A stretch of DNA of 64,000 nucleotides from Methanotrichaceae archaeon (GCA_963803145.1 CAWDLW010000025.1:64001-128000); one strand, 5' to 3'. Shown: positions 21,743 through 57,108, numbered from the stretch's first letter. Notes: generated by a model from the sequence alone, not told the origin. Program-made: numbers and translations.

Positions 21743-23983
21743 TTACTGTTTCCTTCCAAGGACGAGATATGCGACTGCCATCAAGCCAGTTATGGCGAAG
21801 ATGCTCTCGAATCCGGGAGCGGGCTTGGCTGGTGTTGTTGCATTGGCCGGCTTTGTTGCGTTGGTTGGTGTCACGTTCTGTACTGGTGCGGGTGTGACAT
21901 TCTCAGTTGGTGTGACATTCTGGGCAGGTGCTGTTACGTTGGTTGGCGCTGTGACATTGGTGGGTGCAACAGGTGTTACTGGTGCGGCACCAGCGATTGT
22001 AGCGGCCTTGTATATGTAGAACCTGAGTGGATTGGCTGCAGAGATGTTATCCTGATCTGCGGTCTGGATGTATACATTCTGCATCAGGACTGTGTTCTGG
22101 TTCTTGCTCAGAGTGACTGAGTTATCCTTGTTATCCATTGTGATGGTCTTTGTTGACGGGTCGACGTTCCTGATGGACATCTTGTCGTACTGCTGATCCG
22201 TCTGGACCGTCAGGGGTGTATCGGATATCTGGTACTCTCCATCGATAGTGGCGATGTTGGTGTCAGAGCCAAGGAAGGCGTTCTTGAAGTGAACAGCTAC
22301 CTGGATGATCTTAGCTGTTTGTCCAACTGTCGTCTTATAGTAGTATGTCCGATCGCCCATTCCAGCGTTGTCTATGGACGGCTGGATGACCTGATCGTCA
22401 ACTACCTGGCCGTTCTTGGTGAGCTCGACATATACCTTGTTGCCCTTGGTATCTATGGACTTGACAGCGAGCTGATAGCCCTCTTGCAGGACCAATGGGG
22501 TAGCAGATGTGATTGTTCTCTCTGTGTTATCATCCACAAGGACCTTGCTGATCTGGTTGTTTGTCATTAGGTTCCTGTTTGTGGATGTATCATACAGATA
22601 GGCTACCTTTGCGCCAGCATTTGTAACATCTGATGTTACAGTGGGCTCATAAGCGGCAAAGTACTTGTCAGCGAGGAATCCAATTACATCATAAGTGCCC
22701 CATGCCTTGAACTTGAACTTCGCGGCCTGAGCAGTTGTGTTGTAGATGATGCCTCTGTTGCCACTGGCATCAGCGGTACCGCTGAGGGTTGCACTGGACA
22801 TATCTCCGGCTACTTGGGATGGTATAACTGTTATCGTTTCAGTGCCTATGTTCTTGTTTATATCGTAGAAGAAGCCGGCGAATGTTGACGGGTTCCAAGT
22901 AAAGCTCTGGGCGGATAGGTCAGCGACTGTTCCCCTGATCTGATATGTGCCTGGCGCTGTGTACTTCTTATATATGTAGTACCTGAGCGGATTGTCGGCA
23001 GATATGTTATCCTGATCAGCGGTCTGGACGTATACGTTCTGCATTAGAACCGAGTTCTGGTTCTTGCTCAGAGTGATTGCGTTATCCTTGTTATCCATCG
23101 TGATGGTCATCGCAGATGGGTCGACGTTCCTGACGGACATCTTGTCATACTGCTGGTCTGTCTGGACCGTTGTGGGTGTATCAGATACCTGGAATTCTCC
23201 ATCGATAGTGGCGATGTTTGTGTCAGCGCCGCGGAAGGCATTCTTGAAGTGGGCAGCTATCTGGATGATCTTAGCTGTATTTCCAATTGTTGTCTTATAG
23301 TAGTATGTCTGATCGCCCATTCCAGCACCGGTTACGGACGGCTGAATAACCTTGTCGTCAACTACCTGGCCGTTCTTGGTGAGCTCGACATATACCTTGT
23401 TGCCATCTGTATCTATGGACTTGACAGCGAGCTGATAGCCCTCTTGCAGGACCAATGGGGTAGCAGATGTGATTGTCATCTGTGTGTTATCATCCACAAG
23501 GACCTTGCTGATCTGGTTGTTTGTCATTAGGTTCCTGTTTGTGGATGTGTCATACAGATAGGCTACCTTTGCGCCAGCATTTGTAACATCTGATGTTACA
23601 GTGGGCAGATAAGCGGCAAAGTACTTGTCAGCGAGGAATCCAATTACATCATAAGTGCCCCATGCCTTGAACTTGAACTTCGCGGCCTGAGCAGTTGTGG
23701 AGTAGACGATACCTCTATTGTTACTGGCATCCGTCTGATCGCTGAGGGTTGCAGAGGACATATCTGCACTTACCTGGGATGGTCTAAATGTTAGCGATTC
23801 ATTTCCTATGTTCTTGTTTATATCGTAGTAGAAGCCAGCGAAGGTTGATGGGTTCCAAGTAACTGTGCTCTCTCCGAGATTGTGAACAGTACTGCGAACA
23901 TCCACCTCCTGTGCTGCTACAGCCATCGCTGATGCGATTAAAACTATCATCGCGGTGAGCGTGATTGCAGTCATTCTCTTCAT
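21743..23983 (-). CDS. S-layer protein with two DUF1608 repeats and PGF-CTERM anchor
   Basis: Signal peptide; W....FAGFYYDINKN repeated twice; Pro/Thr linker with NxT sequons; PGF + TM + RKQ tail; GGAGG RBS. Confidence 0.93.
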   Translation of the reverse strand: MKRMTAITLTAMIVLIASAMAVAAQEVDVRSTVHNLGESTVTWNPSTFAGFYYDINKNIGNESLTFRPSQVSADMSSATLSDQTDASNNRGIVYSTTAQAAKFKFKAWGTYDVIGFLADKYFAAYLPTVTSDVTNAGAKVAYLYDTSTNRNLMTNNQISKVLVDDNTQMTITSATPLVLQEGYQLAVKSIDTDGNKVYVELTKNGQVVDDKVIQPSVTGAGMGDQTYYYKTTIGNTAKIIQIAAHFKNAFRGADTNIATIDGEFQVSDTPTTVQTDQQYDKMSVRNVDPSAMTITMDNKDNAITLSKNQNSVLMQNVYVQTADQDNISADNPLRYYIYKKYTAPGTYQIRGTVADLSAQSFTWNPSTFAGFFYDINKNIGTETITVIPSQVAGDMSSATLSGTADASGNRGIIYNTTAQAAKFKFKAWGTYDVIGFLADKYFAAYEPTVTSDVTNAGAKVAYLYDTSTNRNLMTNNQISKVLVDDNTERTITSATPLVLQEGYQLAVKSIDTKGNKVYVELTKNGQVVDDQVIQPSIDNAGMGDRTYYYKTTVGQTAKIIQVAVHFKNAFLGSDTNIATIDGEYQISDTPLTVQTDQQYDKMSIRNVDPSTKTITMDNKDNSVTLSKNQNTVLMQNVYIQTADQDNISAANPLRFYIYKAATIAGAAPVTPVAPTNVTAPTNVTAPAQNVTPTENVTPAPVQNVTPTNATKPANATTPAKPAPGFESIFAITGLMAVAYLVLGRKQ

Positions 23984-34729: not shown

Positions 34730-35485
34730 ATGAAGAAGGAACTAGTTGTTTTGGCAATTATTGCAATAGCCCTGGTAGGCATGGCTGGAGCAGCCAACTA
34801 CATGTACGAGAAGGCAAGTATAAAGGGCGTAGGATACAAGAACGTAGAGACGATCATTTCTACACAGTATGGATTCTCTGGCCAGAAGCTGGTTGAGAAG
34901 GAGTCAGGCTCTGGTAACGTAATTACAGAGAACACTGAGATCGAGGCAGAGAGACAGCTGGATATTAACGGCTACGCATTGCCCTGGAATTGTCCATATT
35001 CTAACACAAACTGCCGGATGGACTACATCAACTTCACCAAGGAAGCTGAGTTCGAGTACATGCCAGTCTCATACCAGACCGGTGAGTACAACCAGAAGTG
35101 GATAGAGAAGCTGTGTGTCCAGAACTACAGGATCGGCGCCGTGTTGACTGAGATGTACACTCATGCAGAGCACCTGCAGAAGGATACTGAGGTCAAGACA
35201 AGAGGATATGGCGTTAACCAGGTCGGATCTGGCTCGCAGTGCCCACTCTGCTGTACAGGCGTTCTCGAGGCCAATCTGAACAGCAACGTCATAGGCGTTG
35301 CCCATATCGGATGGCTATCCAGGGACCCGCTCGCAAACAGCCCGACTGCACTTAAGGGACGCCACGCAGAGTATGGCAGGTCCGTTGAGGATCTGACCGG
35401 TGTCTTCTCAATCGAGAAGTTCATCCAGCTCTGGGGCAACTCCACATGCGGCGCAATCAGCGTTGATTGGCTGCCTTGCGTGTAA
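34730..35485 (+). CDS. Secreted Cys-rich structural protein, paralogue 1 (putative sheath protein, MspA-like)
   Basis: GGAGGTG RBS, then ATG 34730. Signal peptide, 251 aa, 8 Cys, beta-type alternating pattern, ends DWLPCV. The sheath assignment is an inference. Confidence 0.6.
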   Translation: MKKELVVLAIIAIALVGMAGAANYMYEKASIKGVGYKNVETIISTQYGFSGQKLVEKESGSGNVITENTEIEAERQLDINGYALPWNCPYSNTNCRMDYINFTKEAEFEYMPVSYQTGEYNQKWIEKLCVQNYRIGAVLTEMYTHAEHLQKDTEVKTRGYGVNQVGSGSQCPLCCTGVLEANLNSNVIGVAHIGWLSRDPLANSPTALKGRHAEYGRSVEDLTGVFSIEKFIQLWGNSTCGAISVDWLPCV

Positions 35486-35861
35486 ATAACATAAAAACTT
35501 AGACGTATAAGCTCCCAGGCATCGTCCTGGGGCTTGTTTCTATATTTTTAAACCTAGCACCCCTACAGCTTGCTGTGCTGGGTTAAGGGTGTCATTATCC
35601 CGTTTTGGGGATGGATCCTTTAGTTAACTGCAACTTTAACGCTGTGACACCTTGCATCTATACTGCTAGAGTAGTGTGTGTTGTAGCCGTTTGATTTTAA
35701 ATCGCTCTCTATTCTAACATTTGGCAACCTTGAGACTAATCCTGATCGACATAATTAGCGGTTAAAGGATCGGGATACTGCAATATTATGGAATTCCACT
35801 CTAGAAAAACTTATAAGCTGTAAGGGTCAATATTTAGAGGATAATATGTATCTGTATAGAC

Positions 35862-36193
35862 CAGATGTCGACATGAACCGCCTGGTGACATATTCGATAG
35901 GTTTATATGCTATTAATCTAATTGAAAGGTCTGTGCCTGAGAATTATGCTCAAATATCGGCTAGAAACTGCAATATCAGGCGCCTCACACCTGAGTGGGT
36001 GGCCCTAAATACTTTCGGTTGCCTCCCCGAGGCGGGATCAAGCGTTATAGTTTCATCTTTTTTGATGGGACTTGCCCGGGAGCCGGAACCTGAAATTCGG
36101 CCATCAGGCAAGTGTGATGTACAGATGGATCTTATGGTGCCGTCTCTGGGCGGCTTTGGATCCTGAGTATTATAGATTGGAGGTGGGAACGAA
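35862..36193 (+). promoter_or_regulatory. Promoter and ~260-nt structured 5' leader of secreted paralogue 2
   Basis: TTTATAT at 35902; GTGCCTGA (35933) can pair with TCAGGCGC (35976); GGAGGTG RBS. Confidence 0.6.
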
Positions 36194-36949
36194 ATGAAGA
36201 AGGAACTAGTTGTTTTGGCAATTATTGCAATAGCCCTGGTAGGCATGGCTGGAGCAGCCAACTACATGTACGAGAAGGCAAGTATAAAAGGCGTAGGATA
36301 CAAGAACGTAGAGACGATCATTTCTACACAGTATGGATTTGCTGGCCAAAAGTTAGTCGAGAAGGAGTCAGGCTCTGGTAACGTAATTACAGAGAACACT
36401 GAGATCGAGGCAGAGAGACAGCTGGATGGTAATGGCTACGCATTGCCCTGGAATTGTCCATATTCTAACACAAACTGCCGGATGGACTACATCAACTTCA
36501 CCAAGGAAGCTGAGTTCGAGTACATGCCAGTCTCATACCAGACCGGTGAGTACAACCAGAAGTGGATAGAGAAGCTGTGTGTCCAGAACTACAGGATCGG
36601 CGCCGTGTTGACTGAGATGTACACTCATGCAGAGCACCTGCAGAAGACAACCGAGGTCAAGACAAGAGGATATGGCGTTAACCAAGTCAATACTGGCTCG
36701 CAGTGCCCACTCTGCTGTACAGGCGTTCTTGAGGCCAATCTGAACAGCAACGTCATAGGCGTTGCCCATATCGGATGGCTATCCAGGGACCCGCTCGCAA
36801 ACAGCCCGACTGCACTTAAGGGACGCCACGCAGAGTATGGCAGGTCCGTTGAGGATCTGACCGGTGTCTTCTCAATCGAGAAGTTCATCCAGCTCTGGGG
36901 CAACTCCACATGCGGCGCAATCAGCGTTGATTGGCTGCCTTGCGTGTAA
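36194..36949 (+). CDS. Secreted Cys-rich structural protein, paralogue 2 (near-identical to paralogue 1)
   Basis: Differs from 34730..35485 at 5 residues (S>A, I>G, D>T, GS>NT). Confidence 0.6.
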   Translation: MKKELVVLAIIAIALVGMAGAANYMYEKASIKGVGYKNVETIISTQYGFAGQKLVEKESGSGNVITENTEIEAERQLDGNGYALPWNCPYSNTNCRMDYINFTKEAEFEYMPVSYQTGEYNQKWIEKLCVQNYRIGAVLTEMYTHAEHLQKTTEVKTRGYGVNQVNTGSQCPLCCTGVLEANLNSNVIGVAHIGWLSRDPLANSPTALKGRHAEYGRSVEDLTGVFSIEKFIQLWGNSTCGAISVDWLPCV

Positions 36950-36989
36950 GCTTACCGCTAAATAGCCAATAGATTTATATAAAATAAAA

Positions 36990-37010
36990 GCTCCAGATCT
37001 TATCTGGAGC
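36990..37010 (+). terminator. 3' stem-loop after paralogue 2
   Basis: Perfect GCTCCAGAT-CTT-ATCTGGAGC, followed by a T-tract at ~37021. Confidence 0.6.
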
Positions 37011-37080
37011 ATATCTTACCTTTTTCAGGTAAGAAGGGATTTAAAACTAAACGTCATACCAAATAGGGGGTGAACGAAAA

Positions 37081-37872
37081 ATGAAGGGAGTAGTAGCAGC
37101 GATTATTATCGCGGCTCTTCTAGCCTGCTGCGGCATTGTGGTGGCAACGCCACCGATTATACCGCCAGTCCAGTTCGAGCAGTTCTGTGAGGATCAGAAG
37201 GTATCAGGAACAGGTGTAGTCGATGTGAGCACATCGATAGTAGATAAAAAGATAGCTCTTGAATATTATAACACTATGGCCGGTGATGGTGACATAGAGC
37301 TTAATCAGGAGCATGCATATTCTCAAGATGCCGATAAGCTTAAGAGAAATATATCATCGGTCAACGGTGGAAACCAATCAGCTCTAAATCTATACGAAAA
37401 TACCCAGCTTACATATTCGGGCCAAACACCCTTGACAGGTGGAAAATACCTCAACTCGAAGGAGTTCTATGGAGGAATTGGCGCCGATGTCCAAGAGATG
37501 TTCTCAGTAAATCAGATGGAGAAGCAGGAGACAGGGTTCTTCGCTTCAACAACGCCCTACAATCCGCCTGGAACAACGCCAGAGGGTCTCATAAAGGATC
37601 TGAAGAATGCAGGACGAGACACAACAGCAGTTAATGAACTCATGACGACAAATGAGGGTGTCAATGTGCCGTCGCACCTGATAGGCATTGATACCAAGAA
37701 CACATTCAACGGTACATGGGGCACTGATGCCAAGTGGCATAAGATATTCTACAAGGATATAAAGGCCCACGAGATGTTCACTGGACAGTTCGAGGCAGAG
37801 AAGACAATCAAGTTCCATGAAAATCCCGTGCCTGAGAACGAGCAGCCACCTTGTGCAGGCATAGATTGCTAG
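37081..37872 (+). CDS. Secreted protein, divergent member of the same family
   Basis: GGGGGTG RBS, signal peptide, motif series collinear with paralogues 1-3, C-terminal PCAGIDC. Confidence 0.7.
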   Translation: MKGVVAAIIIAALLACCGIVVATPPIIPPVQFEQFCEDQKVSGTGVVDVSTSIVDKKIALEYYNTMAGDGDIELNQEHAYSQDADKLKRNISSVNGGNQSALNLYENTQLTYSGQTPLTGGKYLNSKEFYGGIGADVQEMFSVNQMEKQETGFFASTTPYNPPGTTPEGLIKDLKNAGRDTTAVNELMTTNEGVNVPSHLIGIDTKNTFNGTWGTDAKWHKIFYKDIKAHEMFTGQFEAEKTIKFHENPVPENEQPPCAGIDC

Positions 37873-37906
37873 ACTTTGGACTAGCAATCGATTCTTTTTT
37901 TATTTT

Positions 37907-39091
37907 ATGGGGGTTAGTATGATAAGATTGATGACATTATCGATGTTAATTCTCATAATGGGTCTGGCGTCTGCCACAGTCGAGGATTTGGGCAATAACG
38001 CTGACACAGGAACAGGCAGCATATTGCCCACTTCACTGATTACACCATCGCTTCCATCCATGCCTATACCAGCGCCCGACATATGCACATCCACAGGCTA
38101 CTTAAAAGTCAATGTGGCGCTAACAGGCCCGCAATCTGAGAAAGATAAAGATTATACAACTCAAGGAAAAAGCTTGACCTTCGTGGTGACTGTGGAGAAC
38201 GATGGCTCATCAGATGCAAATGCCGATCTCAGCATAGATCCCGAGAGCTGTGCTCTCGAATGGTTTAGCTGGACTACATCGAGTCTGAAGATTCCATCAG
38301 GCTCATCACGCTCGGAGAATCTAGAAGTAAAACCCGATATTAACGCTGTCGCGGGTGATTATAGCTTCAAAGTAACTGCATCCGCAAAATGCTATAGATC
38401 AGGGTCAGCTGAGGCACCCTTCAAAGTACAGGATTACGATTATGCGTCTGAAACTGCGATAAGCGGGACAGGCCAGTTCCAGCTCAATAAGGACATCAGC
38501 TCAATGGATACCGGTATCAAATCAAACAAGGATATCTCATTCAGCGGGAGCGCAGATGCTATTGTCAAGAACGAGTATCTAGTAGATCAGGCAAAGGGCC
38601 GGAACCCCAACTTCGAAGAGCAGGATGCAGTTGATAACTATATGGCCATTAACCCGGGAGATGCGTTTCTGGGAACGGAGAAGTTCAAAAGTTCTGCCAT
38701 TTTCGGAGGAGTGGGTTCCACGATGACTGAGGCATATAACGTTAAGCAGATGGAGTTCAAGAACGCGGATTACAATCTGTACCAGACAGGATCACTGAAA
38801 AAGATGGCCGAGCTTAGAACAGCTGATAACTTCACTGGATACTATCTCATCGATGCCAAGCAGACAATTCCCGGTCAGAAGAACCTGAAGGAGCATGAGG
38901 AGTACCTCGGATCCTTCGAGATAAACAGGAGAATACTCTTCAAAGATAAACCAACAGTCACTACCACATGCGCTGATGGCCCTTGCACCGGCAGCACAAG
39001 TATCGCCAAACCGAACTTTCCCAGCCCATGTCTAAGCAGCTCATGCAGCAACTTCGCAAATAGCTTGAATGCCTTTTCGAAGTCTGCATGA
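37907..39091 (+). CDS. Secreted protein: Ig-like domain fused to a divergent copy of the same family domain
   Basis: Signal peptide; Ig-like segment (F.VTVEN.G...GDYSFKVTAS); then SGTG / GGVG...E / E.LGSFEI motifs; Cys-rich tail. Confidence 0.7.
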   Translation: MGVSMIRLMTLSMLILIMGLASATVEDLGNNADTGTGSILPTSLITPSLPSMPIPAPDICTSTGYLKVNVALTGPQSEKDKDYTTQGKSLTFVVTVENDGSSDANADLSIDPESCALEWFSWTTSSLKIPSGSSRSENLEVKPDINAVAGDYSFKVTASAKCYRSGSAEAPFKVQDYDYASETAISGTGQFQLNKDISSMDTGIKSNKDISFSGSADAIVKNEYLVDQAKGRNPNFEEQDAVDNYMAINPGDAFLGTEKFKSSAIFGGVGSTMTEAYNVKQMEFKNADYNLYQTGSLKKMAELRTADNFTGYYLIDAKQTIPGQKNLKEHEEYLGSFEINRRILFKDKPTVTTTCADGPCTGSTSIAKPNFPSPCLSSSCSNFANSLNAFSKSA

Positions 39092-39334
39092 GTTATATTT
39101 TTCTAAGAATTTTTCAACTATTTGCCGACCTAGCCAGCCTTTTGGGATGTATTTGTTGTACTTTATATAGCAGCCACAAGCTTGAAATAGGTACCTGATT
39201 GTCTTAGCCTCGGGTGTTAGGGTTATCAGGAGAGGAGGTTCAGCCTGGTACGCCAGAACCATAAATCCGCCAAATAGGTTGGATTACAATATTCTGGGCT
39301 TATTATATCCAGGCCTAAAGGAGGTAAGTGTGGA

Positions 39335-40066
39335 ATGAATCAAAAGTTGGTTGTTCTTGCGATCATCATAATTGCCCTAGTGGGAACGGTGAGCGCTGCC
39401 AACTACATGTATGAAAAATCATCTGTAAAAGGCGTAGGTTACAGAAACCTGGAGATTATAATCTCCACCCAAAGTGGCTTTGGCGGAGACAAGCTGGTGG
39501 AGAAGCAATCCGGATCGGGAAATGTGATAACATCGAATATCGAGGTTGAAGCAGAGAGACAGCTGAATCCTGACGGCAGCGCACTTGCGAATTGCAATTA
39601 CGCAAATTCAATTCCAATGGACTACATTAACTTCACTTCGGATCAAGAGCTAGAGTACATGCCTGTCTCATATCAGACTGGAACATACGATCAGAAGTGG
39701 ATAGATAAGCTATGTGTCCAGAACTACCAGATCGGCGCCGTCATGACAGAGATGTACACTCATGCAGAGCACCTGCAGAAGACAACTGAGGTCAAGACCA
39801 GATCTTACGGCACTCAGACAGCCACACCTTGCTGTACAGGCGTTCTCGAGGCCAACATCAACAGCAACGTCATAGGCGTTGCCCATATCGGATGGCTATC
39901 CAGGGATCCGCAAGCAAACAGCCCGACATCGCTCAAGGGACGCCACGCAGAATATGGCAGGTCCGTTGAGGATCTGACTGGTGTCTTCTCAATCGAGAAG
40001 TTCATCCAGCTCTGGGGCAACTCCACGTGCGGCTCAATCAGTGTTGATTGGCTGCCCTGTGTGTAA
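39335..40066 (+). CDS. Secreted Cys-rich structural protein, paralogue 3
   Basis: GGAGGT RBS; ANYMYEK N-terminus; C-terminal half almost identical to paralogues 1 and 2; ends DWLPCV. Confidence 0.6.
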   Translation: MNQKLVVLAIIIIALVGTVSAANYMYEKSSVKGVGYRNLEIIISTQSGFGGDKLVEKQSGSGNVITSNIEVEAERQLNPDGSALANCNYANSIPMDYINFTSDQELEYMPVSYQTGTYDQKWIDKLCVQNYQIGAVMTEMYTHAEHLQKTTEVKTRSYGTQTATPCCTGVLEANINSNVIGVAHIGWLSRDPQANSPTSLKGRHAEYGRSVEDLTGVFSIEKFIQLWGNSTCGSISVDWLPCV

Positions 40067-40171: not shown

Positions 40172-42406
40172 TTACGACCTATTAGTGTTATTTCCTGGTT
40201 CAAGACTCACGTTTATAATCCTGCCCTCAAGGACATCCTTCTCGCTTACGCTTATATTCTGTGTTCTTATGCCTTTGTCGTTGCCAGAGAATATCATATA
40301 TGGATCAAGGGCATGAGTCCCATATTTGTTCTCTGTGGAATAAGGAACCCTTATCTCATACTTGCCGTCTCTTGGCGATCCCTCGTTAATATAATAGAAC
40401 TCTTTGCCTTGATTGGAGGTCAAGTTCAGTAGTGCGCCTACCTTCTGATTGGGTGCTGTGCTCACCTTTATTAATGCGCCCGGAACATATTCGAAGATCT
40501 TTATCATACTATCGGGATTCTCAGTGCCAATAAGCGTAGGCGATCCATAAACCAGCCTGAAGTGCCCCATGCCTGCACCATTGAAAAAGTAAAGGCGTGC
40601 CATAGTCGTGTTCATAAGCTTCTGTGTGGGTGTGGCTTCAAAATCCGAGCCAGAATCCTTAACCGATAAGTAGCTGGCGGGGTCCTCATTTGCCCAGGCT
40701 GCAATGCCAGGCAGCTTGCTGTAAAGCATATTATAGTCCACGAGAACATACTTGGATTTTTTCGCATCAAGCACTGCAGTTGAGGCCGATTCATCACTAG
40801 AGAGATAGAATTTCACAGAATCCGCCACCCCAGACTGGAAATTGTCTGCAATCACCGGCCGCTTTGCGAGGTAAACCACCCAGTTTCCATAATCCCAGAA
40901 GTTCATAATGCCGTACTCAGGGGTTTTTTCGGGGTTTTCATAAAAACTGGTGGAATTGCTGTTACTCTCAAGCCAGTTTAAGGACTCGTACCAATCACCT
41001 ACTGTCTGTGGGACATTGCTTGTGAAATTCATGGTCTCAGATACGGTAGGCAAGATCAAAAGCAATAGCAACACTGTAGCCAGGGCTTTCGAGGACTTCC
41101 CCAAAGCGTCACGTTTGCTAATTGCATCTAGTGCCCAGAAGAAGAGAACGCTTATCAGTATTCCCATTGCAATTGTGGAGAGGTAGAGGAATCTTATCTG
41201 TGATACTGTCAGCAAAAGAGATGCAACTGCCCATGTTAGAATAAAGAGCTGGCCCTTCTCCTCCGCACCTTTTTGTTTGATATATATGGCTAGAACAACA
41301 AGCCCGACCAAAGAGAGGAGCAGGTTCAAGATAAGGTTCCAGCCCAAACTGGAGACGAGCGAGTATGAGAACAGATTCCCGGAATTGGATAAGAGGGGTT
41401 CTGCCTCAGAGATCTTTCCGCTCATTCCCCCTGAAAAGAGAAAATCACCGCCTGATTGAATGAGCGCACCCATATCAAATAAGCTGCCAAAGAGCCTGAA
41501 GAGAACTGTAATGGCACCGGCAATGGCTAATAGAGCCAAAGGGAAGATGGTCCAGTTAATATTCTTCTCGAGGCAAACTTTAGATATTGCGAACATAAGC
41601 AGCATTGCCACAATTGAAGCAGCTATTCCTACGAAGGATGGCAGGAGCCAGGGCGCATTCCAGAAAGGCAATGTGAAGATTAACGCAACTCCAAAAGCCA
41701 ATAAAAATGTGGTTGCAAACTCTTTTGATTGTATCCCGCTCTTCAAATTATATGCCGTTTGAATGGCTACATAAACTAGAATTATCCCCAGATAGATATC
41801 TGCGCCCAACCATGTATAAGCCAGTGCAGCCATCATTATGCCTGAGACTATAGCGAAGACATTTCTCTTTTCTGTCCTTTTGAGGGCCAAAATCAGAAAT
41901 AGAATAGAACTAAGGAAAAGCAAGACCTCTAGTCCATGATGATCAGTCGCACCAATATCTGTTTTCGGTATATAGTAAGGAGATATTGCTGCCATGAATG
42001 CTGAAAAAAGTGCAATATTGCTGTTGAAGGCAGCTTTGGCCAAATAATAGACGACTACAACGGCTACAGTCCCGATAACTACAGGAACCATAGCAGCTAC
42101 CATCGCAATCCCGGGCGGTGTATGCTGGCCCAAAGCAATAGAAAACAATGCGGATAGCTGATCGAAGAGGGGAGGCCACGTCAGGCTTAGGCCGTGGGGA
42201 TAATTAAGATACGAATCGAACCAGAGTGTGTTGGGGAAGTGGTTTGCGGTATATAAAATTCTGCGCATATGATAATACTCATCAGCACCATCCGGTAGAA
42301 TGCCATTTTCCGTAAGGGAGTATCTTCCTGCAAACAACCTTAACAAAAGGCCCAGCAGGGCTACTGCCAACACTTCCGCTGGCTCATACCTTTTCGCACG
42401 GTCCAT
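40172..42406 (-). CDS. aglB: Oligosaccharyltransferase AglB (STT3 family)
   Basis: D.YYH.R, DHH, ISE..PL, FWDYG (WWDYG variant) and DNFQ motifs; many TMs. Confidence 0.92.
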   Translation of the reverse strand: MDRAKRYEPAEVLAVALLGLLLRLFAGRYSLTENGILPDGADEYYHMRRILYTANHFPNTLWFDSYLNYPHGLSLTWPPLFDQLSALFSIALGQHTPPGIAMVAAMVPVVIGTVAVVVVYYLAKAAFNSNIALFSAFMAAISPYYIPKTDIGATDHHGLEVLLFLSSILFLILALKRTEKRNVFAIVSGIMMAALAYTWLGADIYLGIILVYVAIQTAYNLKSGIQSKEFATTFLLAFGVALIFTLPFWNAPWLLPSFVGIAASIVAMLLMFAISKVCLEKNINWTIFPLALLAIAGAITVLFRLFGSLFDMGALIQSGGDFLFSGGMSGKISEAEPLLSNSGNLFSYSLVSSLGWNLILNLLLSLVGLVVLAIYIKQKGAEEKGQLFILTWAVASLLLTVSQIRFLYLSTIAMGILISVLFFWALDAISKRDALGKSSKALATVLLLLLILPTVSETMNFTSNVPQTVGDWYESLNWLESNSNSTSFYENPEKTPEYGIMNFWDYGNWVVYLAKRPVIADNFQSGVADSVKFYLSSDESASTAVLDAKKSKYVLVDYNMLYSKLPGIAAWANEDPASYLSVKDSGSDFEATPTQKLMNTTMARLYFFNGAGMGHFRLVYGSPTLIGTENPDSMIKIFEYVPGALIKVSTAPNQKVGALLNLTSNQGKEFYYINEGSPRDGKYEIRVPYSTENKYGTHALDPYMIFSGNDKGIRTQNISVSEKDVLEGRIINVSLEPGNNTNRS

Positions 42407-42476: not shown

Positions 42477-43756
42477 GTCAGTTACCTGCTACCTAAAGGA
42501 AGCGGGCTTGCCTCCTGATTATATCGAGGCTTCAGAGAATACTGACGAATCCTCACTAGCCCGAAGGCTAGTAAATCTGTTTCGAATGTTGAAGGCGGCA
42601 TTGAGGTCTGCATGAATCGAGAAACCGCAATGAGGGCAAGAGAAAGCATGTCTGTTCCTATTTCCATGAAGGCCACACCTGGAGCATATCTTAGAGGTAT
42701 TCTTGGGGTCAATCTTGGCTACGACGCCCTTTCCCTGCACCTTGTAGCTGACCATGTTGAAGATCATGCCACGAGGCCAGACAGAGAACCGCCTATCCCA
42801 TGCCTTAGTACCGTGCTTCCCTTGCTCAAAATCCAGATCCTCGAATACAAGAACGCAATTCTCAGGAGCCCATTCGACAAGCTTCTTAGAAGCGCAGTTA
42901 CAGAAGTCTTTTGTTCTACGAGATCGCTTGACTTTCAGCCGTTTGAGGGCTCGAGCAACACTTCGAGTATTTTTTCCCTCTGCCTTTCTTTGAGCAAGCT
43001 TTCTCTGGAGTCGTTTTATTGTCTTAGAAGTACGCCTGTTCTTAATTTTTCGATCCAGACCGCTTATGAACAGCTCATTTCCATCAGCATCAACAGCTAC
43101 AATAGCATTGGTTTCGTTGAGGTCGATTCCGATAGGATGAACTCCTTTAACATCAGGAAATTCAATCGTGTAGGCGACATAACCAACGAGCTTACCACCG
43201 AGATTCTTGACTATGATACTATCGAATTCAGTAGCATTATAAAACTCTTCGTTGAACGCTTCAGGGATAATATACTTAAGGTGCTTTCTACCGTCGATTG
43301 TGGAAATGCTCAAAATTCCATCCCTCATGAAGTTGGCATCTCTTCCTCTCTTTCCAACAAGGAAAAGAGCAAAAGGTCGATGCCAATTGAAAGGATGATT
43401 CAATGCATGTCCATTCTTCTTAGCCGAAGCATAAGCACCGGCAGTCAACCTAATGCTAGTGCAAGTAAGCTGGCTGGAAACAGTTCCTTTGACAATATCA
43501 TAAACTCTTCGATGCAGATCAAGAGCTTTGAGAGGTTTGCCAAAATTCCAGGCAGTTTTGGATATGCTATTGCATATCTGAGTGAAGCTATCGAGCGTAT
43601 TGATGAGGGATTCATCATACTCGATAACTATCTGCAAGGTTTTTTGATCAAACATCAATTAGAAGATACCACTATACGAATAAATACTTTACTGATATAT
43701 GGAGGTGTGTAAGGCGCAATTTCTCCTTTTAAGGGAGTGATCTCCTTGTGCCGACG
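42477..43756 (-). mobile_element. tnpB-only IS200/IS605-family (IS1341-like) element
   Basis: Right-end hairpin GCAAGCCCGCTTCCTTTAGGTAGCAGGTAACTGAC on the minus strand; left-end-like motif GGCGCAATTTCTCCTTTTAAGGGAGTGATCTCCTTGTGCC at ~43713-43752; no tnpA. Left boundary approximate. Confidence 0.75.
42519..43655 (-). CDS. tnpB: RNA-guided endonuclease TnpB
   Basis: RuvC D (GIDLN), E (VFEDL) and D (HADLNAA); Zn finger CSRC/CPHC; TSK motif. Confidence 0.93.
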   Translation of the reverse strand: MFDQKTLQIVIEYDESLINTLDSFTQICNSISKTAWNFGKPLKALDLHRRVYDIVKGTVSSQLTCTSIRLTAGAYASAKKNGHALNHPFNWHRPFALFLVGKRGRDANFMRDGILSISTIDGRKHLKYIIPEAFNEEFYNATEFDSIIVKNLGGKLVGYVAYTIEFPDVKGVHPIGIDLNETNAIVAVDADGNELFISGLDRKIKNRRTSKTIKRLQRKLAQRKAEGKNTRSVARALKRLKVKRSRRTKDFCNCASKKLVEWAPENCVLVFEDLDFEQGKHGTKAWDRRFSVWPRGMIFNMVSYKVQGKGVVAKIDPKNTSKICSRCGLHGNRNRHAFSCPHCGFSIHADLNAAFNIRNRFTSLRASEDSSVFSEASI

Positions 43757-51028: not shown

Positions 51029-52018
51029 TTATTGAAAAACACCCTTTGCATATTCAAAGATATGACGTACCTTTAAGAATGGATTGATAAAGGCAGATTC
51101 CGGCTTGAGTACAACTGTCTCAATAGAAGTTGAAATCGGTTCCATTTCATTGCATATGTGTGCAAGCATAGGAAATAGGTTATACCGATCAAGCACTAAA
51201 CGCTTAGCATCTATTATATCTTCTATCGATCTTTCATAGGTTTTATTTTTAATAAGTTCTTCGATAACAGATATTGCTTGATCTGGATTATCGATAGAGA
51301 TCGAAGTAAACGATCCTTCTGGGAAATAGTTAGATAAATTTGTGCATCCATAATAAATTGGGTAAGCGTGGGCGAGGAAGGCATCAGAGATTTTTTCAGT
51401 CCAATAATCCGCAATACTACAGTTCTCCAAGGCAATATGGTACTTGTAGGGATAAATCGCGTCCCATTTATCCGGTATGGGATTAAACCCCCTTCCAAAA
51501 ATATCAATACTAGACCCGAAGTGCGATTTTAACCTATCTACGAATTGAAGACGCAGCCTGTGGCCAGGCGTTTTTGATTTGGATGAACATATAACGGATA
51601 AAAGCTTGGTTTTATGAACTTCTTTGAGATTTTGGAAGTAATCGTAATCTAATTTAGCGATATTTTCTCCTTTCGGCATTCGAATGACACCTGCATGCCA
51701 TGGTTGTGATTGTTGGCTACGAATAACATGGGGATGGTTTATATTAGTTTGACAGGTAATAACAGTGCTGAATTGTGCCAGAAAGCCAGGAGAATATCTT
51801 TTTACGGTCGGAGGCTCACCGGTTATAAGGATGATATTTTGCGGAGGACAGCGAGTGCTTTCTTCTGTTTTCAGACCCTCATAAACTATCCAATAATCGC
51901 ACTCGGGAACTTCATCATTAACAAAGAACTTGCAATCTCCCCAAATACCATTTGAGCCTGGAGTTTGCCGTATTACAGGCCAAGATGTGAATGGATCGGA
52001 TAATTTTATGCGAGTCAT
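51029..52018 (-). CDS. GT10-like (fucosyltransferase family) glycosyltransferase
   Basis: GEPP, K...I.PYKY.IALEN...DYWTEKI.D and PIYYG motifs. Confidence 0.82.
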   Translation of the reverse strand: MTRIKLSDPFTSWPVIRQTPGSNGIWGDCKFFVNDEVPECDYWIVYEGLKTEESTRCPPQNIILITGEPPTVKRYSPGFLAQFSTVITCQTNINHPHVIRSQQSQPWHAGVIRMPKGENIAKLDYDYFQNLKEVHKTKLLSVICSSKSKTPGHRLRLQFVDRLKSHFGSSIDIFGRGFNPIPDKWDAIYPYKYHIALENCSIADYWTEKISDAFLAHAYPIYYGCTNLSNYFPEGSFTSISIDNPDQAISVIEELIKNKTYERSIEDIIDAKRLVLDRYNLFPMLAHICNEMEPISTSIETVVLKPESAFINPFLKVRHIFEYAKGVFQ

Positions 52019-52106
52019 TTAAATTCCAGTTTATTAAAGTGAGTTAAGACTGTAACGCTTACAAGTATATAATTATTTGGAGAGTTATTACATTTTGAAA
52101 ATAGCT

Positions 52107-52976
52107 TTAAAATACAATTTTAATATTCCGTAGTACTCGGGAACCGAGTTCGTATAATATACATTTGATGTTTAAAATATGATAAAGCCTATATTTGTCG
52201 GCAGTATGATTAGGATCTGTGAATTCCTTTGCTATCTGGCCGCCGGACTCACTGCTCCCATTATAAAAAGATCCTGTCCACTTATCCAAATAGCTCTTCC
52301 AATCTTCTCTTTCTCTTTCAGCATTAGACCTTCGTAAAAATGGATCTGCGTGAGAATAGTGCTCAACGTAAGAATCAGGGGAATCTACAATACGATATCC
52401 CTTTTCCCATATTTTTAGACAAAGGTCGCCGTCTGCATAATAAAAGTGGTATGTTTCTTCATCTATGAAACCAATATCTTCCAGAGCCTTTTTTAAATAC
52501 ATTCCATGATTAACGAACATCTTATTACCTAATGTCAATCCTACCCAATATTTCCCTTTCTCTGGCCAATGACGCCAATAGAATGCTAAAGCGCCGACTT
52601 TTTGACCTGCATTGATTTTTTCTTCAAATAAATTATATCCGTTTATTATAGATCCAGGTACGATAAGGCAGTCATCGCTTAACATACATATGTATTTGCC
52701 ATGAGCGCATTTGAACCCAAGGTTCATAAAATATCCCCATGGCTTGCGATCTAATTTCTCACCTTTCCATCTTCCACGATTATGCTGGATGATAGTAATG
52801 ATATCTTTCTGTTTCATTAACCATTTCAAGGCTCCATCAGTCGATCCACCATCCACGATGATCATCTCGTGGGGGATTGATTTCAGCTCATCTCGAACGC
52901 TTTCGATGGTAAGCTTTAGAAGTTTAGAACGGTTATAGCTGCCAATTACGACGGAGATTATTGGTTTAGTTTCCAT
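52107..52976 (-). CDS. GT2 glycosyltransferase
   Basis: ISVVI.SYNR, VDGGSTDG, LSDD and D.DLCLK motifs. Confidence 0.88.
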   Translation of the reverse strand: METKPIISVVIGSYNRSKLLKLTIESVRDELKSIPHEMIIVDGGSTDGALKWLMKQKDIITIIQHNRGRWKGEKLDRKPWGYFMNLGFKCAHGKYICMLSDDCLIVPGSIINGYNLFEEKINAGQKVGALAFYWRHWPEKGKYWVGLTLGNKMFVNHGMYLKKALEDIGFIDEETYHFYYADGDLCLKIWEKGYRIVDSPDSYVEHYSHADPFLRRSNAEREREDWKSYLDKWTGSFYNGSSESGGQIAKEFTDPNHTADKYRLYHILNIKCILYELGSRVLRNIKIVF

Positions 52977-53071
52977 CCTTCCTCATTAGATAGGCTTACT
53001 CTGCTATTGGATTATTTATACGTGCTATCTTGCCATATATAGAAACCTGATTTGGATAAGAACAAATAGGT

Positions 53072-53851
53072 TTATGCTTTCTTTCTAAACCAGAAGCATC
53101 CGCATCCATACGTACAGGAATCGGCGAGCGCTCTCGGGGCGTTTCGTATAAGGCCGCCGATTTTAGGATCATCTGGGATTAAAGCAAATTCAATCAAATC
53201 CGTGTCTGAAAAATAACTTAGAATTTGATCATATGAGTATATTCTATGGGCATTGAACATTATCTTCGGCATTTTCCCCAGAGGAACTACGAAAAGCAAA
53301 TTACCTTCCCGAGATAGTACTCTTTTTAACTCAGATATAGCTCTTAAATCACCATCTGGATTTAAGGGGTCCCCGTATCTTCCCAAACCCACATGTTCCA
53401 CTACATGCATACAGGATAAAGAATTAATGCTTTCATTATCAAAGGGTAATTTAAGAAGATCTGCAGAGCCTGTATATAGATTATCTAGGGATAAATCCGT
53501 ACGGCGGTAATCATAGAACTTGATTGGAATAAACGCGGAAACAATAGCGCAGAAATACAGTGTAGAAGAGATATCTACATGAAATGCAGGTTTAGTCTGG
53601 GATAAGATTCTGGCAGCCCATGCTGCATGATAGACATAATGTCTATCAAATTCGGTCATTGATGTTTTTTCTGTAAGGCATGGATACCAATCACTTTGTC
53701 GAAGCTGAAATCGTTGCTTAGTGTTAATGGACAACGATTTAAATTGGTAATAGTCTTTTATAAAAGGGCAATAGGCGATATTCTTGCGTAGCCGCAGATA
53801 TAGCGATGCTAATACAGTATCCTTGAAGGCAGATTTAATATTATCGCACAT
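53072..53851 (-). CDS. DUF268-like SAM-dependent methyltransferase-fold protein
   Basis: HVDISS, SCMHVVEHVGLGRYGDP and FNAHRIY motifs. Confidence 0.8.
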   Translation of the reverse strand: MCDNIKSAFKDTVLASLYLRLRKNIAYCPFIKDYYQFKSLSINTKQRFQLRQSDWYPCLTEKTSMTEFDRHYVYHAAWAARILSQTKPAFHVDISSTLYFCAIVSAFIPIKFYDYRRTDLSLDNLYTGSADLLKLPFDNESINSLSCMHVVEHVGLGRYGDPLNPDGDLRAISELKRVLSREGNLLFVVPLGKMPKIMFNAHRIYSYDQILSYFSDTDLIEFALIPDDPKIGGLIRNAPRALADSCTYGCGCFWFRKKA

Positions 53852-53996
53852 TTTAATATTATTATAATATTTACTACGAAGGTTTTTCGGTCATCATGAG
53901 GGATATGAAATCATGTATCGATTGGGATTATCATTCGCATTCGCACTCCTTTATACAACCACATGTATGTTTAATACATCGACATTTACATCTACT

Positions 53997-55310
53997 TTAG
54001 CACCATTTTTTAATGATATCCTTGTACCAACATAAATAATCATTGACCTGCTTGTCCAAGTTAAATTTATTATTAACCACCTTTGAGCCATTGTATCCCA
54101 TTTTATCGGTCAAACAGTCATCTTGCAAAAGTTCCAAAATCTTATGGCTCATTTCCGTTGAATCCCCTTGCGGTACAAGAAAACCTGTATGGAAATCATC
54201 TACTTGTTCAGGTATGCCACCAACAGATGTTGCTACGACGGGTGTTCCACACGATAAAGCTTCAAGTATAGTATTAGGAAATGTATCTGCTCGTGCAGCA
54301 TGAATATATATATCCGCAGATTGATAATAACGTGCGACAATTAAAGGGTCTTTTTGATAATCAATAAATTGAACTCTTGCTGATCCTATCTTTTCTGGTA
54401 CGCTATTCTCACCCAAAGCAATGAATAAAATATCTTTTTTATATGACGACTTTGCAACCAGTGAAATAGCCTTTCTCAGTGTTTCGTAATCCTTCCATAT
54501 ATTTTCTTTTAATCCTGCAGCAGCAAAGAGAAGTATTTTGGTTCTTTGAGGTAGACCAAGTATCTCTCTTGCAAGCGTTTTCTCGGAATGGTTGAAGATC
54601 TTTCGATCTACTCCATTAGGTATCACCTTTGATTCCACGATAGCAGAAGTTAGCATAGAGCTTTTTACTTTGCTCATTAACCAACTGCATGGGGTAGTTA
54701 TATAGAGCCTGCTTCGAGCATAGATATTGCGTTTAAACATCCAATTATGCGCGGTAGAATCATGCCTGATCGAGGGGTTAATTTTAAGATCTGGACATTT
54801 TCCACAACCGCACATCCATCGTTCACATGAAAAAAAGTGCGCGCAATGACCAGTCAGCATCCAGGCATCATGGAGCGTAATCAATACCGGAACCTTATGG
54901 CTAATATGTGGTAATATGCGAAGATCGAAATATCCTCCATGAAGGTTATGACAATGAAGGATATCAAGATCTTCTAGCCTTGAACTGAGAAAAGTGTTGC
55001 TACCAGGAAAATCAAAATCCTCTCGCCCAATTAATATCTTCGAACATCGATAAGGTTGACCGATCCATTTTAAACTTGGAAAATTTGATGAATAACCTAG
55101 ATTTAACCAAATACGTGCCCAAGTGCTACGAAGATTATCGTTTGGTATTTGTAATACATCTTTATCATCGCTTGTCTTATTTCCAACTGCAAGATAAGAC
55201 TTATAGCCTTTTTGACGATACGATTGAAATAAGCTATAGGCTACCTTCCCAGCGCCCCCTACGGTATCTAGAGCATTTACCTGTAGGACGCTTAGGCTGT
55301 GGTTATCCAT
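53997..55310 (-). CDS. GT4 glycosyltransferase (WcaC-like)
   Basis: GGA, HNLHG, TLHD.W..TGHC and DTFPNTILEA motifs. ATG 55310 is preferred because it couples to the upstream stop. Confidence 0.88.
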   Translation of the reverse strand: MDNHSLSVLQVNALDTVGGAGKVAYSLFQSYRQKGYKSYLAVGNKTSDDKDVLQIPNDNLRSTWARIWLNLGYSSNFPSLKWIGQPYRCSKILIGREDFDFPGSNTFLSSRLEDLDILHCHNLHGGYFDLRILPHISHKVPVLITLHDAWMLTGHCAHFFSCERWMCGCGKCPDLKINPSIRHDSTAHNWMFKRNIYARSRLYITTPCSWLMSKVKSSMLTSAIVESKVIPNGVDRKIFNHSEKTLAREILGLPQRTKILLFAAAGLKENIWKDYETLRKAISLVAKSSYKKDILFIALGENSVPEKIGSARVQFIDYQKDPLIVARYYQSADIYIHAARADTFPNTILEALSCGTPVVATSVGGIPEQVDDFHTGFLVPQGDSTEMSHKILELLQDDCLTDKMGYNGSKVVNNKFNLDKQVNDYLCWYKDIIKKWC

Positions 55311-56376
55311 AAAACCAGTATCGTAACCTATGGGCAAATTCATCACCGTTCCAATCTCGAACCAAAAAACGAGGGAGATAATACAGATCGGATTGTTGGG
55401 TAACAGGGGCAGCAAAATTAGCGCATCCTCTAGAATAACCAGCATCCATAATTAACTGAACTATATTTCCTCTGGCATCGCTTTCGATCCCATATGGATA
55501 GGAAAAACTCTTCACTTTATTTCCAATTAGTTTTTCAAGGTATTTTTTACTCTCGAAGATTTCCTTTCTCTGGGCTTCTTTAGGCATCTTTAAAAGCATT
55601 GGATGAGTGACACTATGAGACCCTATCTCTATCAAACCACTGGAATTTAATTTCTTTATTTCTTCATTTGCTAGTGCTCTATAATCCTTACGCCCATATC
55701 GTGAAGCTCCAGACCATTCAATCAGTGTTTCTATCACTTCTTGTTGTTGTTCTTCCATTAAAGGGAGAAGCAAATGATGGAGATCGAGATATGTTTTTTG
55801 TCGAAGATTGGGTTTTGAGTGCATAGTGACATTCCACGAAGGCCTGAAATCTTGTATTTTATAACCATCACTTAGGTCTGTTTTTGATTCCAAATGCCTA
55901 TTTCCGTCATTAAGCTTCCAGTGATAGCTTTTGCCATCAATAACGAGATTAAGGTCTTTTGGGAGATTCTCCTGTAGAAGCAAGATTCTTTCTAACTCAT
56001 CCCACCAAAATTCTCTATTACTGCCCACATAACCAGTTGTAACAAATACAGTTGCACGTATACAATATTTCTCAAGAAGTGGTTTAGCATTCCACAAATT
56101 ATCTACATAGCCATCATCGAAAGTAATTGCAACAGAGTGCTGTGATATGCTCCCTGAAATGATATCTTGGCCTAATTTAGCTAAGCTTAATGGCTCGTAG
56201 TACTGCTGAAGGATATTTAGATGTTCTTCAAAATGCCGAGGTGTTACGCTAAGTAATTGCGGATCATTCCTTAAATTTGCTACCCTATGATAGGCCAAAA
56301 TAATCGTATGACTTGGTTTTTTCCCTTGTATCTTATTCATAAAATAATTTAATTTCTTAAGCGTGGGTAAATGCAT
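55303..56376 (-). CDS. Polysaccharide deacetylase (CE4)
   Basis: YHRV, TFDDGY, GSHSVTH and FSYPYG motifs. Confidence 0.92.
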   Translation of the reverse strand: MHLPTLKKLNYFMNKIQGKKPSHTIILAYHRVANLRNDPQLLSVTPRHFEEHLNILQQYYEPLSLAKLGQDIISGSISQHSVAITFDDGYVDNLWNAKPLLEKYCIRATVFVTTGYVGSNREFWWDELERILLLQENLPKDLNLVIDGKSYHWKLNDGNRHLESKTDLSDGYKIQDFRPSWNVTMHSKPNLRQKTYLDLHHLLLPLMEEQQQEVIETLIEWSGASRYGRKDYRALANEEIKKLNSSGLIEIGSHSVTHPMLLKMPKEAQRKEIFESKKYLEKLIGNKVKSFSYPYGIESDARGNIVQLIMDAGYSRGCANFAAPVTQQSDLYYLPRFLVRDWNGDEFAHRLRYWFYG

Positions 56377-56379
56377 AGG

Positions 56380-57108
56380 TTATCCGCTCTTAGGTTTTAT
56401 AGCACGGATAGTAATTAATACTTCATAATTAGGATCGTTATATTCTAATTCTTCTCTGAGAAGTTCTTCGGTAGCCAATCCATGTAGGGACGAGATAGCA
56501 ACAAGCACATTTCCGTATGATCGGACCTCGATATTTTTAGAAGGAAAATATGCCTCAAAAAGCCGTTTTGTAGATAATGTAGTAAACCTCCAGTAATCTC
56601 CCCATCTATCCATATCATAACGACTGATTTGGCAAATACCAGGGACCGTAGCTAATAATACCCCACCAGGTTTTAGCGCAAAATAACTATTCTTTATCGC
56701 AGAACTAACGTCATAAATGCAAAGCAATGTTTGAGTAAGTATCATGCAATCAAATACATCCTTTGGGATGCCCTCCCCCGTCGCTAGATTGCCGATAATA
56801 GTAGCTTCTTCATTGCTATAATCGGCATGGAGTATATCGATATGATCTATTTGTTTACCTCCAAATTTTCGTGAGTAATAATCATCGGCAATTTCCAATA
56901 CATTTCCTCTGATATCATCTGAATGCTCTGCTAAAAATTTTTCGATATAATATCTTCCAATAGGCGTTCCACGATCATAACCAAAAGCTGTACTAATAGG
57001 TTCTAATCTACGCAAACTTCCAAAACGAATAGTTTGCGAGCGATGGATATAATTGCCCAACAATTTCTTTAGATGATTTGATTTTGATAGAAAATTACAT
57101 CGGTCCAT
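56380..57108 (-). CDS. SAM-dependent methyltransferase
   Basis: FG.DRG.PI.RYY, FDC..LTQ, LKPGG and DYWRFT motifs. Confidence 0.85.
   Translation of the reverse strand: MDRCNFLSKSNHLKKLLGNYIHRSQTIRFGSLRRLEPISTAFGYDRGTPIGRYYIEKFLAEHSDDIRGNVLEIADDYYSRKFGGKQIDHIDILHADYSNEEATIIGNLATGEGIPKDVFDCMILTQTLLCIYDVSSAIKNSYFALKPGGVLLATVPGICQISRYDMDRWGDYWRFTTLSTKRLFEAYFPSKNIEVRSYGNVLVAISSLHGLATEELLREELEYNDPNYEVLITIRAIKPKSG

Follow-up and report, generated by a model that had tools for sequence, protein, structure and literature searches.

Do five neighboring genes for secreted, cysteine-rich proteins in an uncultured Methanotrichaceae archaeon encode the building blocks of the Methanothrix sheath, and do their products share one domain? 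The genes lie in a stretch of 64,000 nucleotides (GCA_963803145.1, CAWDLW010000025.1:64001-128000), the whole of which we call the window, in the order A1, A2, B, C, A3 (Table 1). An earlier note made from the DNA alone (the original prediction) had described five genes, three of them close paralogs ending in DWLPCV, and this description holds: all five open reading frames (ORFs) are present on the plus strand, with DWLPCV at the C-terminal end of A1, A2 and A3. Every motif string that it quoted is found in the translations, A, B and C share a single motif order, and the translations likewise show signal peptides and C-terminal Cys residues in all five products. We conclude that the cluster is probably the main gene cluster for sheath-forming (SH) proteins of an uncultured Methanothrix, with four SH-like subunit types: an 'upstream' A type (A-up) in two copies, B, C, and a 'downstream' A type (A-down).

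Likeness to sheath-forming proteins

SH proteins of Methanotrichales, Methanomicrobiales and ANME-1 have been surveyed by Medvedeva, Borrel and Gribaldo (ISME J 2024, PMC11576556), an article drawn on here in part. According to those portions, every Methanotrichales genome encodes SH proteins, in up to 40 copies. They carry a signal peptide, measure 150-350 residues when free of immunoglobulin-like (Ig-like) domains, and have a core of two six-stranded sheets whose cap ranges from none, through a helix, up to the chains of Ig-like domains that define 'sheath adhesins'. Two or three repeated cores occur in 63 of them. Their genes form clusters with neighbors up to 100% identical, near S-layer genes and with no other conserved context. 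Viral SH-like proteins are also reported there; neither A nor B had a tblastn match in 50,697 phage records. For Methanospirillum hungatei, the SH monomer and putative inter-ring disulfides have been described, again according to the parts consulted, with maps deposited in EMDB and no SH coordinates in the PDB (Wang et al., Nat Commun 2023, PMC10593813).

Our placement of A, B and C in the SH family is made because their traits, or those of their relatives, match the published description. All have signal peptides, and low-confidence models of A and B are all-beta. The A proteins (243-251 residues) and B (263 residues) are without Ig-like domains, and C (394 residues) has one, so that variants with no cap, a small cap and an Ig cap are all represented. 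The genes form a tandem cluster with near-identical neighbors and an S-layer gene nearby. Relatives exist with two or three repeated cores and with long Ig chains; the proteins are present throughout the Methanotrichaceae, and their Cys residues are suited to cross-links. The claim that this is a sheath-assembly locus with major and minor subunits thus stands in broad terms, by likeness to the partly consulted SH survey; the proposed nucleator does not.

Several observations weigh against this assignment. The match is one of traits, set against a published description rather than against the sequences or models of proven SH proteins such as that of M. hungatei (WP_011449234.1) and Mthe_0668/0667. 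In the genomes examined here, B and B-C copies lie dispersed, whereas the portions of PMC11576556 consulted give a single SH cluster per Methanotrichales genome. The AlphaFold2 models are poor, with a predicted local distance difference test (pLDDT) score of 43.7 for A and 55 for B, and Foldseek matches to the B model in PDB and BFVD have template modeling (TM) scores of about 0.1, which are meaningless. Direct comparison of A with B or C by BLASTP gives only E>1. Aligned by hhalign in its default setting, the A and B/C family profiles match at motif 4 only, over some 20 columns (E=0.02-0.04, probability ~2%). Finally, the A family is absent among the best 150 matches of the B/C profile to 1.84 billion representatives.

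The original prediction had a different reference in mind, namely an amyloid of the MspA type built like curli, with a CsgA/CsgB-like major subunit and dedicated nucleator and a functional coupling to aglB, the oligosaccharyltransferase gene next to the cluster. MspA of Methanothrix thermoacetophila reportedly goes back to Dueholm et al. in 2015, as related by citing papers. Like the five proteins of the cluster, MspA of strain PT (ABK14853.1, Mthe_1069) is secreted and contains Cys; by the partial accounts consulted, MspA was found in Methanothrix sheath preparations. It differs from them, to judge by descriptions, in being a 60.9 kDa protein with two Cys and no RefSeq homologs (Christensen et al., PMC6242892, in part), and it is reported to lack homologs in other Methanothrix. 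The consulted part of PMC11576556 argues that its identification as the main sheath protein was mistaken and that it does not resemble SH proteins in structure, which makes it an outdated reference and similarity to it an outdated test. Curli resembles the proposed sheath as an extracellular beta-arch polymer with a secreted major subunit of repeated strand-turn-strand units; it differs in being bacterial and in having a dedicated nucleator and an operon-encoded secretion channel. Neither the Pfam and NCBIfam scans of the five proteins nor a Pfam scan of 48 window ORFs revealed any sequence relation to curli or any curli-type assembly or accessory gene, and no feature pointing to a nucleator was seen. 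Several subunit types in a fixed order, terminal Cys residues, conserved sequons and the adjacent aglB would all suit such a system. The last of these is not a general feature: where a locus reaches at least 2.5 kb downstream, the A-down gene has aglB within 3 kb in 6 of 25 cases (and in 3 of 6 where it reaches less far), and therefore the adjacency in the window reflects no conserved linkage. B and B-C copies, moreover, occur at unrelated loci, and the functional link to aglB and the glycan genes is not borne out. We consider the MspA/curli explanation highly improbable.

Relationship of A to B and C

B and C are clearly homologous by sequence. BLASTP aligns them over 237 residues (E=5e-9), and an alignment of 20 B and 18 C orthologs contains 19 invariant columns. 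The position of A, which direct comparison leaves apart, was approached through divergent relatives. Three proteins, P0350, P0317 and P0349, carry a B/C-type domain together with an N-terminal stretch much like that of A. An intermediate profile was built from these and from P0326 and P0336, with no sequence from the window and with signal peptides removed both from its rows and from the A-type targets. It was searched against 2131 ORFs of related loci and against 305 window ORFs. Over the 2131 ORFs, all 80 B proteins ranked first, followed by C proteins and then by the A family, with a best E-value of 8.5e-5, 11 A proteins below 1e-3, and an alignment covering mature A residues 2-130. Fifty-five A proteins ranked ahead of the first unrelated ORF (E=0.14). 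With signal peptides kept in, the best A match reached E=1.7e-7, a value regarded as inflated. In the window, the same profile returned B (7e-33), C (1.6e-16), A3 (6.4e-5), A2 (0.004) and A1 (0.005), and none of the other ORFs scored below E=1.

In a lax setting, hhalign produced a 198-column collinear alignment of the A and B/C profiles through all motifs, although the score was not raised. Three MAFFT modes each bring A and B into register, in identical columns, at four of their six Gly-containing motifs. Ten positions are at least 90% conserved in both the A and B/C families in the joint alignment (G33, G35, G60, G62, N101, A137, E141, G224, F226 and K230 in A numbering).

The competing explanation is that A is unrelated to B and C, the motifs having converged in two secreted families of Gly-turn beta proteins that happen to lie side by side. 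The failed BLASTP and default hhalign comparisons and the absence of A among the best 150 B/C-profile matches favor it, as do the modest E-values of the intermediate profile (8.5e-5 to 5e-3). It would have to account for 55 A proteins preceding any unrelated ORF, for an alignment of about 130 residues over motifs 1-3, for motif 4, which hhalign found independently, for six collinear motifs, for ten positions nearly invariant in both families, and for a conserved gene order. We regard convergence as quite unlikely. Distant homology of A to B and C is probable, not proven; its basis is modest E-values and collinearity. The claim of one domain in all five proteins is thus secure for B and C and, by way of the intermediate profile, probable for A.

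Conserved and variable regions

Identity is 98% between A1 and A2 and 78% between A2 and A3. At the DNA level the A1/A2 repeat comprises the coding sequence and about 15 nucleotides upstream only; the remaining upstream regions differ. Each A gene has a GGAGGT box 6-9 nucleotides before its ATG. Sites resembling a hairpin followed by a T run, which are pattern matches only, occur 3' of each of the three A genes, and a further such site overlaps the end of B. In the translations, each of the five proteins opens with a charged N-terminus that leads into a hydrophobic signal-like segment, followed in the A proteins by an A-x-A-like site (AGA/ANY); the putative signal peptide of A1 covers approximately residues 1-21. 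A1 contains eight Cys residues. Near the C-termini, Cys is found at positions 240 and 250 of A, 258 and 263 of B (where the end reads PCxGIDC), and 355, 360, 375 and 380 of C. Antisense ORFs of 94 residues inside A1 (35161-35445) and A2 (36625-36909), both on the minus strand, were copied when the A genes were duplicated and most likely do not represent genes.

Across 185 A sequences, column entropy in the core is close to 0 bits, compared with about 3 bits in the first of three variable segments, HV1. These segments span residues 78-96 (HV1), 161-173 (HV2) and 201-207, and the first two vary also in length, HV1 from 13 to 53 residues across the 185 family members and HV2 from 6 to 27 across the family. 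Invariant in A are C129, C174, C175, C240 and C250 and the sequons N101-F-T and N237-S-T. In B the invariant residues include C36, C258, C263 and the sequon N210-G-T, and a variable insert follows TTPYNP at approximately residues 158-198. As predicted from sequence, N-glycosylation is likely at the invariant sites N101 and N237 of A and N210 of B.

The scans of the five proteins against Pfam and NCBIfam assigned no family, with nothing above cut-off. The closest approach is in residues 77-159 of C, where the window copy matches NPCBM_assoc (E=0.0016; 19.0 bits, cut-off 24.4) and CARDB (E=0.016; 15.9 bits, cut-off 22.7). NPCBM_assoc was matched by 15 of the 38 rows of the B/C alignment at E<=0.01, with a best value of 3.4e-6; the matching rows are not named in that scan, and the extra N-terminal region is present only in the C rows.

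This Ig-like region also bears on a candidate link to earlier sheath chemistry that we rejected. A sheath glycopeptide of M. concilii described in 1990 has the structure Rha-Asn-Glu-Gly-Ser (cited in PMC2952790). The sequence NEGS is found in 4 of 44 C orthologs (L053, L054, L076 and L077), within the Ig-like domain, and in none of 196 A or 200 B proteins; the window copy reads NDGS. A four-residue match within an Ig motif of the type VxNxG is too weak to serve as a link.

The locus across Methanotrichaceae

Related loci were anchored on B in species-representative genomes, taking the best 80 of 219 stretches that encode a B relative, which yielded 78 loci. The nearest relatives of both A and B are all in Methanothrix/Methanotrichaceae genomes, the closest B ortholog (L001, among those best 80) being 92% identical. 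B-C-A-down is present in 31 of the 78 loci, and in these 31 A-down is single-copy after C. The number of A-up copies per locus ranges from one to five. Where there is enough flank on both sides of B (44 loci), the full order A-up, B, C, A-down is found in 12; B stands alone in 25, B-C in five, and B-C-A without a nearby A-up in two. The synteny that had been proposed as a check on the cluster, A (one to five copies)-B-C-A, thus does recur across Methanotrichaceae. Solitary B copies adjoin unrelated genes, such as those for a Hef-type helicase or a P-type ATPase.

In the tree built from 74 A proteins, the 43 copies upstream of B separate cleanly from the 31 downstream of C, with support of 100/99. 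The A-up copies cluster by genome, some being identical within one genome, which points to recent duplication or gene conversion.

Longer relatives and the alternative of an envelope anchor

The B/C profile, searched against the 1.84 billion representatives, matched 195 proteins at E<=1e-3, 126 at E<=1e-10 and 61 at E<=1e-30. Among the 150 best matches listed, 51 span nearly the whole B/C domain, which is almost always C-terminal in long proteins of up to 3100 residues. When 25 of these long proteins were scanned with Pfam, 14 proved to contain DUF11 and 21 some Ig-like domain (DUF11, DUF7507, CARDB, PKD or SdrD_B), often in company with VWA, LVIVD, Laminin_G_3 or Peptidase_C25.

Such architectures bring up a second alternative, in which the proteins belong to the cell envelope and not to the sheath wall. 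The B/C domain would then be a general C-terminal module anchoring surface proteins to an S-layer-like granular layer or to the spacer plugs, while A would belong to the plugs or to an inter-cell matrix. A domain found C-terminally in varied enzymes and adhesins (VWA, Peptidase_C25, LVIVD, PKD) does look like an anchoring module; B copies do stand alone beside housekeeping genes; and the plug proteins are stated to be unknown in the consulted portions of PMC11576556. Those same portions read an SH core with Ig chains as a sheath adhesin, and an A core that is extremely conserved, is amplified in tandem and has tandem-repeat relatives is a better fit to a polymerizing wall subunit. On these grounds an envelope role outside the sheath wall appears unlikely, and we retain the SH reading.

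A search with the A profile for longer proteins gave 22 matches. In P0400, P0408 and P0411, two or three tandem units of about 168 residues each align to the whole A core without the variable loops of A, and the last motif of one unit closely precedes the first motif of the next. This proximity hints at head-to-tail joining of free A subunits.

Other matches show the A modules in different settings. In P0394 and P0397 the modules are permuted, with turn motifs in the order 1, 4, 5, 3, 2, 6 instead of 1 to 6, which suggests that strand-turn-strand modules can be rearranged. Large secreted subtilases (Peptidase_S8) from outside the window, namely P0395, P0396, P0398, P0399, P0401, P0402, P0410 and P0413, contain only pieces of A, consisting of the N-terminal motif and a segment at residues 173-235. 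The subtilase encoded in the window itself has no detectable piece of A. P0017 (337 residues, also outside the window) combines a signal peptide, a ubiquitin-like domain (PF00240, PF11976) and a complete core of the A type, 84% identical to A2. Its first 100 residues have no tblastn match in the window, and its A-type part matches the three A genes only. It is odd for a putative sheath subunit to carry a secreted ubiquitin fold.

Predicted structure and a proposed assembly

From a 30-row alignment, AlphaFold2 models A as all-beta with 10 strands; from 38 rows, B is modeled as all-beta with long paired strands. At the low confidence given above, strand breaks in A coincide with four of the six Gly motifs, and two short helices appear in the variable insert of B. 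Sequence searches of PDB with A, B, C and the deep B/C profile found nothing relevant, and ESM Atlas gave no usable match for A or B. A complex prediction for A (residues 22-251) with B (residues 25-263), run without controls, gave scores of 0.01, 0.59 and 0.00 and speaks neither for nor against binding.

If the cluster does encode SH proteins, an assembly can be proposed. Each protein would be exported by the Sec route through its signal peptide, and each subunit would contain a core of about 170-230 residues with six Gly-containing turn motifs. Read as six strand-turn-strand arches, these motifs would give twelve strands, equivalent to the two six-stranded sheets of the SH core. Rings may form by edge-to-edge joining in the manner suggested by the tandem-repeat relatives, with each subunit's last arch paired to the first arch of its neighbor. 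As proposed for M. hungatei SH, terminal Cys pairs could cross-link rings or hoops. The wall subunit would be A, amplified and near-invariant and divided into two old subtypes, and its two hypervariable loops would point outward as minimal 'caps'. B would represent the variant with a small cap, whose insert is probably helical, and C the one with an Ig cap. In large Ig-rich proteins, a terminal B/C core may tether the remainder into the sheath, making these proteins 'sheath adhesins'. The sequons of A and B would be glycosylated without a fixed genetic link to a neighboring aglB.

A more specific and rather doubtful version can be stated. The fixed quartet A-up(n)-B-C-A-down might be the building kit of the mesophilic Methanothrix sheath. 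A would then be the true major subunit, with an invariant N-glycosylated arch core and two hypervariable outward loops diversifying under pressure from viruses or epibionts, and its arch modules would be shuffleable, as P0394, P0397 and the subtilase pieces might illustrate. Such a kit would imply a defined stoichiometric architecture and a variable 'antigenic' surface of the sheath, neither of which is stated in the portions of PMC11576556 consulted.

Methanothrix ranks among the major sources of biogenic methane, and how its cells come into contact with syntrophic partners, viruses and epibionts is determined by the sheath. Sheath genes of mesophilic species, with invariant parts (core, sequons, Cys) distinguished from hypervariable ones (loops), would offer targets for proteomics, cryo-electron tomography fitting and glycopeptide mapping. 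The family was already surveyed in 2024, so that the value of the present locus lies in confirmation and finer anatomy and not in a new kind of system. Beyond the portions of PMC11576556 consulted, and possibly contained in its supplements, are the fixed A-up(n)-B-C-A-down order, the old A-up/A-down split, the hypervariable loops on an invariant A core, the invariant sequons, the permuted modules of P0394 and P0397, and the solitary B copies. Unless they are in those supplements, such details of gene order, subfamilies, loops, sequons and permutation add modestly to the survey. The consulted parts of a transcriptome paper on M. soehngenii (PMC11087674) make no mention of the sheath.

Surroundings of the cluster

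Table 1. Features of the window, with positions counted from its first nucleotide
Feature	Position	Strand	Basis or remark
A1, 251-residue secreted A-type protein, 'upstream' subfamily (A-up)	34730-35485	+	ORF and translation
A2, 251-residue near-identical tandem copy of A1 (A-up)	36194-36949	+	ORF and translation
Hypervariable loop HV1 of A2, residues 78-96	36425-36481	+	Column entropy
Hypervariable loop HV2 of A2, residues 161-173	36674-36712	+	Column entropy
B, 263-residue secreted protein, B/C-type core only	37081-37872	+	ORF and translation
C, 394-residue secreted protein: N-terminal Ig-like domain, B/C-type core, Cys-containing tail	37907-39091	+	
Ig-like (NEW3/CARDB-type) domain of C, residues 77-159	38135-38383	+	Weak Pfam match
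B/C-type core of C, approximately residues 170-362	38414-38992	+	BLASTP to B residues 30-260, multiple alignment
A3, 243-residue A-type protein, distinct 'downstream' subfamily (A-down)	39335-40066	+	
aglB (oligosaccharyltransferase)	40172-42406	-	Pfam STT3, AglB_L1, AglB_core; directly downstream of A3
TnpB/IS605-type ORF between aglB and glycosyltransferase cluster	42519-43658	-	
S-layer protein gene, two S-layer duplication domains and PGF-CTERM	21743-23983	-	PF07752, E=7.6e-147; ~11 kb upstream
DDE transposase ORF, further upstream	11096-12331	+	
Subtilase	1049-3001		
Large ORF, open at window end	62065-63999	-	Weak fn3 match

Beyond the TnpB-like gene, a cluster of glycosyltransferase, methyltransferase and ABC-exporter genes extends to about 61.6 kb. 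Its glycosyltransferase/pyruvyltransferase/methyltransferase part, at 52000-60000, has a G+C content of 0.37-0.38, against approximately 0.46-0.51 elsewhere in the window, and may be a variable or acquired glycan island. The large ORF at the window end may encode another surface protein; neither the A nor the B/C profile matches it significantly (E=0.25). On the other side of the cluster, eight predicted genes separate the S-layer gene from A1, the same as the numbering gap from Mthe_0677 (S-layer) to Mthe_0668 (the top SH gene in the portions of the survey consulted) in M. thermoacetophila, a coincidence by numbering only.

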